Shown: in pieces, positions 7,346 through 62,153 of the stretch | How positions within the stretch are numbered: the first letter of the stretch is position 1 | How the letters are laid out: the number at the start of each line of letters is the position of its first letter | Origin: an uncultured bacterium | GTDB lineage: Bacteria; Zixibacteria; MSB-5A5; JAABVY01; JAHJOQ01 | NCBI GenBank assembly: GCA_965369655.1 | Contig: CBDUQR010000013.1 | Coordinates: forward strand, 1 to 62,153 | Length of the DNA stretch: 62,153 nt | Reading direction: 5' to 3' | Position numbers and translations under genes: made by a program | The notes under the pieces: generated by a model | The model's database searches: none | Seen by the model: the letters and a program-made list of their open reading frames with translations, nothing else | What the model was told of the DNA's origin: nothing

Positions 7346-7582
7346 GGCTACCCGAACCAATTCAACCCACTGACTGATATCACGATACATCTACCTGAAG
7401 AGATGGAGTGGAAACTCGAGATCTACAACATTATGGGACAGATGGTTGAGAGCTTCTCGGGTCGTGATGTCGGCGAGGTGACCGTGACCTGGGATGCCAC
7501 GACCAAAGCTTCCGGCATGTATTTCTACAAAGCTACGGCAGGAGATTACGCTGAAACCAGAAAGATGGTGCTGATGAAATAG
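7346..7582 (+). pseudogene. orphan T9SS type A/FlgD-like C-terminal sorting domain remnant
   Basis: Manual translation GYPNQFNPLTDITIHLPEEMEWKLEIYNIMGQMV...WDATTKASGMYFYKATAGDYAETRKMVLMK*; in-frame stop at 7310-7312 upstream. Confidence 0.75.
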
Positions 7583-15164: not shown

Positions 15165-15305
15165 GAGGTTGTCACAAAAGGCCTGATAGGTTGGTGTTCA
15201 TGCTTGCGAAAGAAAGCGAGGTCATTCCCGCGCAGGCACTTCGCTTTGCTCAGGATATCACGGGAATCCATTGAATGCGTTATAGTTAAATAGATTCCCG
15301 CCTCC
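15165..15305 (+). mobile_element. MITE carrying a REP doublet, truncated by IS1182 remnant
   Basis: Starts GAGGTTGTCACAAAAG; internal GTCATTCCCGCG...GGGAATCC matches copies at 22967 and 33765. Confidence 0.7.
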
Positions 15306-58485: not shown

Positions 58486-58547
58486 CGAGTCTGACGCTGT
58501 TTCCTGACTGTACTGTTATCATGGATGATAATCATGACGGTATTCAT

Positions 58548-58629
58548 GCCGAGGTGGTGGAATTGGTAGACACGCTATCTTGAGGGGGTAGTGAGGCAAC
58601 TCGTGCGGGTTCAAATCCCGCTCTCGGCA
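58548..58629 (+). tRNA. tRNA-Leu(GAG)
   Basis: GCCGAGG acceptor, GGTAGAC D-loop, anticodon loop TTGAGGG, long variable arm, TTCAAAT; CCA not encoded. Confidence 0.93.
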
Positions 58630-58631
58630 TA

Positions 58632-58679: not shown

Positions 58680-58900
58680 TTCTAAAGGGGCGCTTGAGCG
58701 CGTGGATGTGTTTGTGAACGACAGATTCCTTCGAGGATCAGCACTCGTGTCCATATCTGCCGATGCCAGTTATGACATAAGTATAAACTGTTGTGCATAC
58801 CTTGCCGACCAGAACTGGCCGCAGTGTGATTAGATAGGAAAAAGGATGCAAACCCACCAGACGCTCCGCTCTTGGCGGGCTACCGGGTAAATTAGAAGAG

Positions 58901-58946
58901 TGTCGAAACCGCCCTTCGCAGGCTCAGGACAGGCAGGTGTTTCGAC
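58901..58946 (+). repeat. left copy of 46-bp inverted repeat flanking cytochrome cassette
   Basis: 42/46 identical (manual count) to reverse complement of 61997-62042. Confidence 0.8.
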
Positions 58947-58989: not shown

Positions 58990-60516
58990 TCAAGGTGACA
59001 GTTCTACGACATCGCCTTGCTTAATATCATCAAATGATTTCAAGAACTCATCTTGCAGATATTGATGCATCTGGAAGTCAATATCTGCCGAATCGGCTGG
59101 CTGCAGGAATTTGAATGGTTCCTCATGGCCATTGGCCAGTATTGAGTGACACAGAGCACAGTCGCTGGAAATAGCTCTGCCATTTTCGTCCACCATACGA
59201 GAGTTATGGCAACTGAAACATCCGCCATCGCCTACGTGACCAATATTACTGGAGTAAGTTCCCCAGCCGATATTCATCTCAGGATGTATATTGCGATTAT
59301 AAATATCCTGCAGAACAGTGATAGCTGAGTCAATTAGTATCGACTTGCTCATTACTAATTCGGGATGATTACGCTGGTAGTAGCCATACAGGTGGTTGGA
59401 GATCCCTTCCATGGCAGCCTGCTTGTCAGGATAGCCAACCGTGATCGCATGAAGAGCCTCTCGCTTGAGAAATGGCAGTGATTTATCAAGGACGCCTCGC
59501 TTGATACGATAATCTATAGCTTGCTCGGGATTCTCGTATATATGGGTGGCACGGTTATGGCAATCAACACAATCCATTGTCCGAACAGATGAAACCTGGT
59601 TCTCTGAAGCGAATTTATCCCCTGACGAGTAGCGGTGGTAGCTCCCATCGGACCGACGTACTTCTACCCATAGGATCTTTTCCCGCATATCATCGACAGA
59701 AGAGTACCTGACTTCGTTTTCCTTCGCAACATGCCAGTGTATACCGGCCCTGGAGTTGGCCGAGCCGGCATCAACTTTCAGATTCAGTGTTGTGTACAAA
59801 GGAGTTGATGCTGAATCGTTCTGGTAATGCGCAATGGTTTTCAGTCGGGTGCCGTAGAACTTTTCCGGCCAGTGGCATTTCTCGCAAGTTTCCCGGGCCG
59901 GTCGCAACTGGTGTACGGGAGTGGGAATTGGTCGTTCAAACAGATCAAACGTCACAGAGATCATCTGCCAGATCCCGTTGAGTTTGCTGTCAATCAACGC
60001 CCGCTCACCCTCACCCACGTGACACTGCACACAGGCTACGCGGGAGTGCGGTGATTGCTGATATGTAACCCACTCAGGGTTCATCACACTGTGGCAGGCC
60101 GTCCCACAGAACTCCGGTTCATCCATAAAATGGAGCATACGCATACTGATACTAATGAGGAAAACAAGATTGATGATTGTCAGCAGTACGATGGTTCGCC
60201 CCAACCGTGACCCCATAAAACCACTCTTTACAGCGTTGCTATCGAAGCGTGTTTCAATCAGTTCCCTGGCTGATTTCCCGGTTTTTTTCTTGACGCGATG
60301 CCAGCCGACAGGGATGAGAATCAATCCAATCACAAACAGCGCCGGAAACAGCAAGTATGTTACAAGGCCTATGTAGGCATTGGTAATTATCCCAGATATC
60401 CGCGCCAGCTCCAGAATAACCAGACAGACAAACGACGAGATGGTCAGGACCACTCCCAGCCTACAGGTTTGGCAGATTGAAATGCCACGAATGAATTTGA
60501 GGTATCTTGCTAACAA
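58990..60516 (-). CDS. NapC/NirT-family membrane-anchored multiheme cytochrome c (about 6 hemes)
   Basis: Three N-terminal TMs; CGTACH, CVQCH, CEKCH, CVDCH, CFSCH, CALCH. Confidence 0.85.
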   Translation of the reverse strand: MLARYLKFIRGISICQTCRLGVVLTISSFVCLVILELARISGIITNAYIGLVTYLLFPALFVIGLILIPVGWHRVKKKTGKSARELIETRFDSNAVKSGFMGSRLGRTIVLLTIINLVFLISISMRMLHFMDEPEFCGTACHSVMNPEWVTYQQSPHSRVACVQCHVGEGERALIDSKLNGIWQMISVTFDLFERPIPTPVHQLRPARETCEKCHWPEKFYGTRLKTIAHYQNDSASTPLYTTLNLKVDAGSANSRAGIHWHVAKENEVRYSSVDDMREKILWVEVRRSDGSYHRYSSGDKFASENQVSSVRTMDCVDCHNRATHIYENPEQAIDYRIKRGVLDKSLPFLKREALHAITVGYPDKQAAMEGISNHLYGYYQRNHPELVMSKSILIDSAITVLQDIYNRNIHPEMNIGWGTYSSNIGHVGDGGCFSCHNSRMVDENGRAISSDCALCHSILANGHEEPFKFLQPADSADIDFQMHQYLQDEFLKSFDDIKQGDVVELSP

Positions 60517-60525
60517 GCTTGTCTC

Positions 60526-61863
60526 CTACTGCTGTTTGAACAGTCCTTCGTAGACTCTCTGTAGTTTACCAGAGTGTATGCTCTCCTTGAGTTCTCCTGT
60601 CGGAGTTGTCAGCCAAGCGTGCATAGGATTGTCTTTGATCAATTCGTCAAGATACGCATTCAACTCGGGATCGTTGAACTTGCGTGCCTCGGGCAGCATT
60701 TTGAAATAGAAATGCTGGGCTACGTCATAGATGCCGTGCCACCATGTGTAGTCCGGTCCCATCATAGCGGCGCCGTGTCTGGCGCGCCGACCCTCATGGT
60801 GCCACAGTTCCCAGTATGTCCACTCTATCTTGTTGCCAAAAGCAGCCGGACTCTTCATGAGTTTGCGTTCCTTGACGATCTTCATGATCTCCCCGGCTGG
60901 CTTTGCGAACTTCTCGTTGTAGAGCTTCACAAGGGCATCAAACTGGAAATAGTGACCGTCAGCAAAAGTGCTGCTGTGACACGTTTTACACACTGCCATC
61001 ATATTGGCGCGCTTGGTCTGCCACTCGTCCTTGTGCTTCGATACGGGCGGTCGCAGTGTCCAGCTTATTCTTTCGCCAACGTCATGTGTCACTGCTGTAG
61101 ATGCAGTCGCAGACATATGGCAGGTGGCGCAGGTGGGCGCTTCAAAGTAGTCAACGCCAACAACCCAGCGATCAGAATCGATATTCATGTCATCAATGTG
61201 CGTGTAGTAAGCATTGCCATGCTTGGACTCCTCATATATCTCTTTCTGAGGGTGATCCGGGCCGAGGTGACACTTCGAGCATGCCTCGGGTTGTCTGGCC
61301 TGAGCAACTGAGAAAGAGTGCCTGGTGTGACAGGCGTTGCATGACCCTTTGGAACCATCAGGATTGAGCCGTCCGATCCCGGAGTTGGGCCAGGACTTGG
61401 TAGAAAGGCGGTTGAGCGAATTCGGATCGATCTCCACCTTGCCACCATGACAGCTTTCACAGCCAGTGATAGCTACCGGCGCGCCACCGGCCACATGAGC
61501 CAGATAAGCATCTGCGGACTCGAGAATCTCGCCGGCATGAGCATGATAGGAGTTTTCAACTTCCGTAGCCTCTTTCTGATGGCAAGCACCACAGTCTTTG
61601 GGTGTCACAAGCGTGGCGATAAACCCGCCCTCGTGCATAAACCCGTCTTTGTCCCCTTTCTGGGCTCTATGACAGTCAATACATGTCACCTTGTGCATGG
61701 CGTGCTGGGACATAAACCACTGCTGATAAAGACCTGGGGATTTCTCTTTGTGGCAAGTCATACACTTACCTGCAACCTGAGCCTCCGTTAGTGCAGGGTT
61801 GGCATAGGCAAGCAACGAAAATGACAACATCAACAGCACAATACCTGTAATTCGTTTCATCAT
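60526..61863 (-). CDS. octaheme HAO-family cytochrome c
   Basis: Signal peptide; eight CxxCH (CMTCH, CIDCH, CGACH, CESCH, CNACH, CSKCH, CATCH, CKTCH); GPDHPQKEIY, WHHEGRR, GPDYTWWHG. Confidence 0.88.
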   Translation of the reverse strand: MMKRITGIVLLMLSFSLLAYANPALTEAQVAGKCMTCHKEKSPGLYQQWFMSQHAMHKVTCIDCHRAQKGDKDGFMHEGGFIATLVTPKDCGACHQKEATEVENSYHAHAGEILESADAYLAHVAGGAPVAITGCESCHGGKVEIDPNSLNRLSTKSWPNSGIGRLNPDGSKGSCNACHTRHSFSVAQARQPEACSKCHLGPDHPQKEIYEESKHGNAYYTHIDDMNIDSDRWVVGVDYFEAPTCATCHMSATASTAVTHDVGERISWTLRPPVSKHKDEWQTKRANMMAVCKTCHSSTFADGHYFQFDALVKLYNEKFAKPAGEIMKIVKERKLMKSPAAFGNKIEWTYWELWHHEGRRARHGAAMMGPDYTWWHGIYDVAQHFYFKMLPEARKFNDPELNAYLDELIKDNPMHAWLTTPTGELKESIHSGKLQRVYEGLFKQQ

Positions 61864-61996
61864 GTAGCTCCTGTTATGGTCATCAAGATTCAATCATATA
61901 TACTTTACTCCAGCGAACCAGTCCAACAAAAAATCCCGACCGTCACATCGAAAAGATTCTATCTGAATGTGAGCGCGCCGATGAACGGTCGAGTAG

Positions 61997-62042
61997 GTCG
62001 AAACCCTTGTCTGTCCTGAGCCTGCGAAGGGTGGTTTCGACA
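61997..62042 (-). repeat. right copy of 46-bp inverted repeat flanking cytochrome cassette
   Basis: GTCGAAACCCTTGTCTGTCCTGAGCCTGCGAAGGGTGGTTTCGACA, preceded by GTAG. Confidence 0.8.
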
Positions 62043-62082
62043 TTCTATCCGATCTCAACTCGATTTATGTAATAGGCTATTT

Positions 62083-62153
62083 TGGTAGCGGGGGCAGGAT
62101 TTGTCGCAGATGCTGAGCGAGCGAAGTGAACCTGCGACCTTCGGGTTATGAGC
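62083..62153 (-). tRNA. 3' half of initiator-type tRNA-Met(CAT) with a 25-nt insertion in the T-loop; cut by window edge
   Basis: Minus strand GCTCATAACCCGAAGGTCGCAGGTTC[ACTTCGCTCGCTCAGCATCTGCGAC]AAATCCTGCCCCCGCTACCA. Confidence 0.85.

Follow-up and report, generated by a model that had tools for sequence, protein, structure and literature searches.

The last 71 bases of the window, read on the minus strand, hold the 3′ part of an initiator tRNA-Met gene split in its T-loop by 25 nt, and comparison with related sequences makes it probable that this piece is a non-functional half copy of the gene, of att type and situated at the border of an island, with a small REP-apex-like insertion at the tip of its T-arm. 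The window is the entire contig C13 (62,153 bp) of a 2.99-Mb Zixibacteria MAG, G000, which has 100 contigs and is 99.5% complete. In annotation, the piece would be better entered as an att-type fragment marking an island border than as a tRNA gene. The features on which the argument turns are these:

62083..62153, minus strand: 3′ part of an initiator tRNA-Met with a split T-loop (27 + 21 nt aligned to the intact initiator on contig C46)
62104..62128, minus strand: 25-nt insert between T55 and C56/A57 of the T-loop (placed by alignment to C46)
62113..62126, plus strand, opposite the tRNA: motif CTGAGC-GAG-CGAAG within the insert, matching the apex of REP hairpins in G000
61988..62042, plus strand: full GTAG-tagged REP hairpin (GTCGAAAC...GTTTCGAC) that shares this apex motif and lies 41 nt past the tRNA 3′ end
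60526..61893, minus strand: multihaem cytochrome c gene, 3′ of the tRNA piece and on the same strand, listed for context (Pfam Multi-haem_cyto, 1.9e-29)

The piece spans the anticodon stem and loop to the CCA end, with the minus-strand order GCTCATAACCCGAAGGTCGCAGGTT, 25 nt, CAAATCCTGCCCCCGCTACCA from 62153 to 62083. Without the insert, its 46 tRNA bases show one difference from the intact C46 initiator (G, not A, at position 42), and both the sequence and this alignment bear out the preliminary description, which had recognised an initiator-type tRNA-Met with a 25-nt insert in the T-loop; as it had also stated, removal of the insert restores a canonical T-loop, with GGTTCAAATCC regained. Because C13 is the whole window, the tRNA gene is truncated at the contig end, and the 5′ half had been correctly placed beyond the window, as the contig ends inside the anticodon stem. 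Neither ARAGORN nor Rfam (at E <= 1) made a call on 62083-62153, and Rfam likewise returned no family for the insert-bearing copies found in relatives. After the CCA, the flank at 62043..62082 (minus strand) is identical at 20 of its first 29 nt to the flank of the intact tRNA-fMet gene in G001, a genome of the same genus, and shows no likeness beyond them. Synteny was also sought through the cytochrome gene, of which seven relatives have a homologue, none with a tRNA beside it. Two large multihaem cytochrome genes (58990-60516 and 60526-61893, both on the minus strand) lie between the tRNA-fMet piece and a tRNA-Leu(GAG) at 58547-58630, and a REP copy (58897-58946) is found approximately 270 nt downstream of this tRNA-Leu.

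The exact insert 25-mer and its 17-mer core each occur once in G000. The dinucleotide TG is present at both edges of the insert, so that the coordinates 62104-62128, 62103-62127 (those of the preliminary description) and 62102-62126 are equally valid. The 7-nt complementarity between GTCGCAG and CTGCGAC noticed earlier does form a stem in the predicted fold of the insert region, and it is the only one; the further proposal that it could refold the T-arm did not survive comparison with shuffled sequences, since the fold on the tRNA strand reaches −7.6 kcal/mol against −6.09 ± 1.97 kcal/mol for shuffles (z −0.77, with 42 of 200 shuffles as good) and the fold on the opposite strand has a z of +0.31. 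We accordingly rejected T-arm refolding as a signal carried by the insert.

Contigs assembled from reads argue that the insert is real. Logan contigs from two runs (X2 record 15 and X3 record 23) are identical to the window over 62082-62153, the insert is also spanned by two variant contigs (X1 record 7 with 5 differences and X3 record 22 with 3), and no contig at this locus lacks it; the runs are from marine sediment and may be the source samples of the assembly, so this support is not independent. An assembly artefact, in which the insert or its junction would be a chimera formed at a repeat near the contig end, could draw on the position of the piece as the final 71 nt of a MAG contig adjoining repeats and on the fall of depth in run X1 to 0 at 62052-62067, and is nonetheless very improbable given these Logan contigs and the finding that 10 other Zixibacteria genomes and 10 metagenome loci have homologous inserts in the same place. 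One of the contigs (X3 record 23) reaches 138 nt past the end of C13. No other G000 contig overlaps that end or terminates in arm repeats, and a 37-nt query had no exact match among JGI metagenome contigs.

ARAGORN identified 44 tRNA genes in G000, three of them with anticodon CAT, and a check for other tRNA-fMet genes found an intact bacterial initiator on C46 (c[2460,2536]) with C1xU72, three G-C pairs in the anticodon stem and A11:U24; G000 thus has a working initiator gene besides the C13 piece. Short tRNA-fMet fragments (approximately positions 22-53) are also present on C22, C89 and C16, where they adjoin GTCTGGTGTT and TTTCTAAC repeats. A decayed full-length tRNA-fMet pseudogene at C64:7238-7310 has the anticodon AAT and combines the host-type T28 with G42, and about 130 nt past it (~7437-7460) the 3′ end of the elongator tRNA-Met at C64:554-629 occurs again.

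Position 42 offers a hint of where the parts of the piece came from. The host tRNA has a T28-A42 pair both in G000 (on C46) and in G001, and G42 is found in the C13 piece, in the C22 and C89 fragments and in element-borne copies of other Zixibacteria. Upstream of tRNA-fMet, G001 is syntenic with C46 (77% over 1.4 kb). Taken together, the G42/A42 pattern, the flank shared with G001 and the C46 synteny suggest that C46 and C13 may be the two sides of one interrupted ancestral locus, that the left part of the C13 piece may have arrived with a mobile element, and that the crossover may have been located 3′ of position 42. These suggestions are weak, because the likeness of the flank is short, tblastx found nothing in G000 for the further 1.5 kb of G001 after it, and the G42 signal could also stem from one substitution; a physical link between C46 and C13 is proposed from G001 synteny only. 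No integrase adjoins the C46, C22 or C89 pieces in G000, and the nearest integrase homologue in this genome is on C32.

Insert-bearing copies recur among relatives. Across 285 genomes of the class, a strict pattern matched in 4 (reversed control, 0) and the left junction alone in 11, of which 2 are spurious coding matches (reversed control, 2 genomes), and an anchor search in which the insert could fall at any point from the anticodon arm to the acceptor yielded 10 matches in 9 genomes (control, 0), six with a T-loop insert and four with a 13-nt variable-loop hairpin instead. In the union of these searches, a homologous T-loop insert is present in 11 of the 285 Zixibacteria genomes. A GTDB-wide scan returned 19 loci, comprising 7 trivial tandem att duplications, 3 Altiarchaeota initiators with T-loop introns, 4 Zixibacteria loci, 2 GC-hairpin plugs (Lentisphaerae and another bacterium) and 3 spurious or unclear cases, and of the 19 loci from JGI metagenomes, 10 have inserts of the Zixibacteria type and 7 have GC hairpins, the other 2 being spurious or unclear. 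Viral contigs and phage records contained 0 insert-bearing matches, and plasmid records held no such match, only the ordinary first 27 nt of tRNA-fMet.

The inserts of the Zixibacteria type share a set of boxes, GGTT-yNCTTCG...CTCAG-SA...CTnnCG-CAAATCC, with no fold beyond that of shuffles, and CTTCG and CTCAG are kept in all 16 of 16 such copies. Unrelated GC hairpins occupy the same T-loop spot in other phyla, and these fold strongly (z −2.7 and −2.9). The 13-nt variable-loop hairpin (CACCT-ATC-AGGTG and variants) was seen in the element-borne halves L085, L086, L089 and L090 (in G062, G083, G178 and G194), and together with a T-loop insert in L079 (G090) and L088 (G170).

None of the comparable copies is a complete tRNA. 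From 29 distinct pattern-defined sequences, we dropped three archaeal and two spurious ones as well as the window copy, which has only 13 nt upstream, leaving 23 bacterial copies. With 60 nt of upstream sequence considered, a tRNA 5′ half is present in 0 of these 23 (0 of the 15 of Zixibacteria type), the best local alignment score for a 5′ half being 13 in the 23 copies versus 23-31 in four intact controls. Many of the copies are also decaying: full T-stem pairing survives in 15 of 23, the stem being broken in the other 8, and only 8 of 23 retain the anticodon loop. By analogy, the C13 copy itself would have no 5′ half.

These observations bear on what the preliminary description had offered as possible explanations, of which the first, an inactivated or att-derived copy, is upheld by the intact gene on C46 and by relatives’ copies that lack the 5′ half, decay and sit behind integrase arm repeats. 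The other two, which amount to a working initiator gene whose 25-nt insert is either tolerated as an enlarged T-arm in the mature tRNA or removed from the transcript as a mini-intron, could appeal to the nearly intact 46 nt outside the insert, to the complementary T-stem and to the true T-loop introns of archaeal initiator tRNAs at the three Altiarchaeota loci. We nevertheless regard a working gene as extremely unlikely, since the genome is bacterial and has its intact initiator on C46, the homologous copies decay and lack 5′ halves, no Rfam family was found, and in one relative (G118) the insert is variably present among homologous halves behind near-identical arm repeats. Neither a tolerated arm nor an excisable mini-intron has support: the fold is not significant, no copy is joined to a normal 5′ half, and inspection of the insert borders showed no bulge-helix-bulge, the start of the 3′ exon lacking any 4-bp partner within the insert. 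To find a bacterial initiator tRNA with a spliced or tolerated insert would be remarkable, and the evidence points against one here.

Comparison with known introns leads in the same direction. Archaeal tRNA introns occur at non-canonical positions, the T-loop included, and are cut at bulge-helix-bulge motifs. The C13 piece resembles such genes in having a short T-loop insert in an initiator tRNA, and three Altiarchaeota genes matched the same pattern, but it differs in that G000 is bacterial, no bulge-helix-bulge was seen and the bacterial copies lack 5′ halves. The Altiarchaeota loci (L027, L032 and L037, from three MAGs) are initiator tRNAs with T-loop inserts of 33-34 nt and apparently more inserts upstream, and their T-loop inserts can be presumed to be genuine archaeal introns. 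In bacterial tRNA genes, group I introns are structured, approximately 200-300 nt long and situated in the anticodon loop. Like them, the insert interrupts a bacterial tRNA gene, whereas its 25 nt lie in the T-loop and have no significant fold; a group I intron was rejected because 25 nt is far too short, the site is in the T-loop and Rfam gave no match at E <= 1.

Tyrosine-integrase islands and prophages at tRNA genes leave half-tRNA att repeats. Such repeats were reportedly described by Reiter et al. in 1989, sublocation classes for integration at tRNA genes are said to have been set out by Williams in 2002, and Islander is said to cover islands at tRNA genes. The C13 piece fits this picture in that it extends from the anticodon loop of the tRNA to its 3′ end and an intact gene exists elsewhere in G000, and its relatives fit in that their copies lack the 5′ half, have an integrase and arm-type repeats alongside and form tandem island arrays. 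It departs from the picture in that the repeat is split in the T-loop, that neither an integrase nor the other island border is on C13, and that G42 in place of A42 points to a crossover 3′ of the anticodon loop or to a left part brought by the element.

The island arrays of relatives illustrate how such halves are arranged. In G028, the intact tRNA-fMet is followed by three half copies, each running from the anticodon loop to the CCA, whose T-loop inserts of 48, 25 and 24 nt are homologous to that of the window; the halves separate small gene sets with no integrase between them. In G118, the intact tRNA is followed by a truncated integrase, HsdM and AbiE genes and then four more junctions, where halves with and without the insert alternate. 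Conserved arm repeats precede each half, and after most halves come a terminator and more arm repeats; among homologous halves behind near-identical arm repeats, the insert is present in some and absent in others. In G090, three paralogous halves carry the same doubled 25-nt unit, the first unit being nearly identical to the window insert, and each half stands behind an arm repeat. These paralogues show what would be a duplication of plugged halves along with element ends. At locus L062, an 8.4-kb island without an integrase separates the tRNA from an insert-bearing half.

An integrase together with arm-type repeats was found beside att sites in G118, G236, G232/L041 and G240. The arm-type repeats have the form GTCTGGTG...TGTT.GG plus approximately 12 nt, and a tRNA-fMet 5′ half would have the form CGCGGGGTGGAGCAG...GCTCGT. 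We also considered an integrase tail, since the insert would break the TGA stop of the G118 integrase; the idea was dropped because the ‘tail’ matches arm regions that have no integrase and the frame is not conserved among inserts. The truncated integrase ORF in question (L024 12519-13172, G118:C10) runs antisense through the terminator and the tRNA 3′ end and takes its TGA stop from the T-loop.

A rival to the att reading is that the 5′ half lies just past the contig end, so that the piece would belong to a whole tRNA-fMet pseudogene with a loop insertion. We consider this improbable, given that 0 of 23 copies with this kind of insert and 0 of 15 of Zixibacteria type have a 5′ half and that the closest relatives of the window insert (L055/L062 and G090) sit behind integrase arm repeats; in favour of it, the contig end hides the 5′ side, G000 does contain the decayed full-length pseudogene on C64, and G274 provides a precedent, a copy that follows an intact gene and a GIY-YIG ORF and has a hairpin in its D-loop as well as in its T-loop. 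This G274 copy is the one full-length copy with a T-loop hairpin among the genomes of the class and counts against the att reading; it is an implausible tRNA too. At that locus (L093, G274:C65, 1124-1553), an intact tRNA-fMet is followed by an 86-residue GIY-YIG ORF and, about 250 nt behind the gene, by the full-length copy, in which the same 15-nt hairpin TCCGCC-nnn-GGCGGA occupies both loops and which the last codons of the ORF enter.

The best clue to the origin of the insert is the micro-module CTTCG..GCTCAG that the preliminary description had singled out. It does recur: its complement CTGAGC-N3-5-CGAAG has 112 copies in G000, of which the insert site is one, versus 10 for a scrambled control. 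The motif is enriched in relatives too (81 versus 6 for the control in G118, 64 versus 4 in G236, 25 versus 9 in G028, 17 versus 5 in G090 and 11 versus 4 in G001). Several families of dispersed hairpin repeats in G000, all with a GTAG tag, have this motif as their conserved apex (23 copies of one family were aligned), and in them different stem sets, namely ATTCCCG/CGGGAAT, GTCGAAAC/GTTTCGAC, GTCAGGAG/CTCCTGAC and GTCAAGCGG/CCGCTTGAC, share the one apex TCCTGAGC-N3-GCGAAGGG. In that strand, the apex motif can pair as a stem with tandem G-A mismatches. Within the window, the motif starts at 15253, 16357, 23055, 23332, 33861, 58927 and 62016. The REP family of the hairpin next to the tRNA piece (61988-62042) has at least 20 dispersed copies in G000, including the one at 58897-58946, and Rfam gave no match to the REP copies of the window.

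REP/REPIN hairpin repeats are moved by RAYT (Y1) transposases, and Di Nocera et al. in 2013 are reportedly the authors to name for this association. Three things connect the C13 insert with them: the apex motif itself, five Y1_Tnp (PF01797) matches above the cut-off in G000, and the full REP located 41 nt past the tRNA 3′ end. Unlike a REP, the insert is only 25 nt long and single-copy, and the T-stem or the GTCGCAG/CTGCGAC pair would need to act as its stem. It shares only the 14-nt apex motif with REPs and has neither REP stems of its own nor a GTAG tag, and for this reason we refer to it as REP-apex-like rather than as a REP. The features of REPs considered here were the GTAG tag and the presence of Y1 genes only; by the definition of a REP/REPIN as a GTAG-tagged imperfect palindrome with many dispersed copies, the 25-mer is not one. 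The GC-hairpin plugs of two genomes from other phyla were also considered as high-copy REPs, and they have 11 and 12 sites against 3 and 0 in the control; since they are not high-copy, ‘REP-derived’ may not be a general explanation.

We propose that tyrosine-integrase elements targeting tRNA-fMet would carry or leave 3′ halves of the gene as att repeats at their borders, and that the end of C13 is probably the far border of at least one island between C46 and C13. The insert would then be a small DNA insertion, not an intron, at the apex of the T-arm palindrome, with the REP apex motif opposite the tRNA, and it may have arrived through the Y1 transposases that act on single-strand hairpins and move REPs. 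Similar loop plugs recur in Zixibacteria tRNA-fMet half copies and would be duplicated with the arm repeats of the element, persisting because the copies are dispensable as tRNA.

The plugs might alternatively be functional parts of att sites or decoys, with loop-plugged tRNA-fMet mimics maintained by selection: a plug might split the 45-bp att repeat and so counter recombination, shut out competing integrases whose crossover falls in the T-loop, or provide a safe landing pad so that the single essential initiator gene is left untouched. The indications in favour are that CTTCG and CTCAG are kept in 16 of 16 copies of Zixibacteria type as compared with 8 of 23 for the anticodon loop, that plugs are duplicated with arm repeats in G090, that certain insert-bearing units (family f15, below) lie directly behind the intact gene and are pushed away by islands together with a clean half, and that unrelated hairpins occupy the same loop in other phyla. 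We hold selection for such a role to be unlikely, as the T-stem is broken in 8 of 23 copies and the Zixibacteria-type inserts fold no better than shuffles; moreover, related copies are non-independent, so that the kept boxes may reflect shared descent or repeated insertion of the REP type.

Under the preferred reading of a non-functional att-type half copy, what goes beyond textbook att scars is that spare tRNA-fMet copies of several phyla repeatedly carry plugs, whether in the T-loop, in the variable loop or, in one case, in the D-loop. A more far-reaching idea, which we put forward tentatively and think rather doubtful, is that loop-plugged tRNA-fMet copies at island borders form a class of their own across several phyla, in which hairpin or REP-apex modules enter T-, variable and D-loops site-specifically, placed there by an insertion process that targets hairpin loops or retained by selection as part of an att site or decoy. 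Site-specific placement, if real, would be relevant to the choice of targets by REP-like sequences and to the way in which island arrays are stabilised at a single-copy essential gene. A full-text literature search found no description of interrupted tRNA fragments or loop-plugged spare halves. PMC9897764 describes tRNA gene fragments left by mobile elements, and the word ‘interrupted’ occurs in it 0 times.

Family f15 (G228, G236, G240 and metagenome loci) presents a distinct arrangement, in which tRNA-like units that bear inserts follow the intact gene immediately; at loci with an island, a clean half has been displaced together with these units. Downstream of the E. coli tyrT gene, repeats associated with RtT RNA form tandem units that each repeat the tRNA 3′ end. 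The f15 arrays, to which this comparison applies rather than to the C13 copy, are similar in forming tandem units behind a tRNA gene but differ in that they keep most of the 3′ two-thirds of the tRNA, with the loops plugged. Tandem units of approximately 133 nt were observed behind tRNA-fMet at L025/L077 (G236:C47, ~855-1325), L071/L080 (G228), L072 (G229), L074/L081 (G240), L049 and L058; each consists of what is left of the D-arm, a GC hairpin where the anticodon arm would be, the variable loop, the T-arm with its insert, the 3′ acceptor strand and a T-run.
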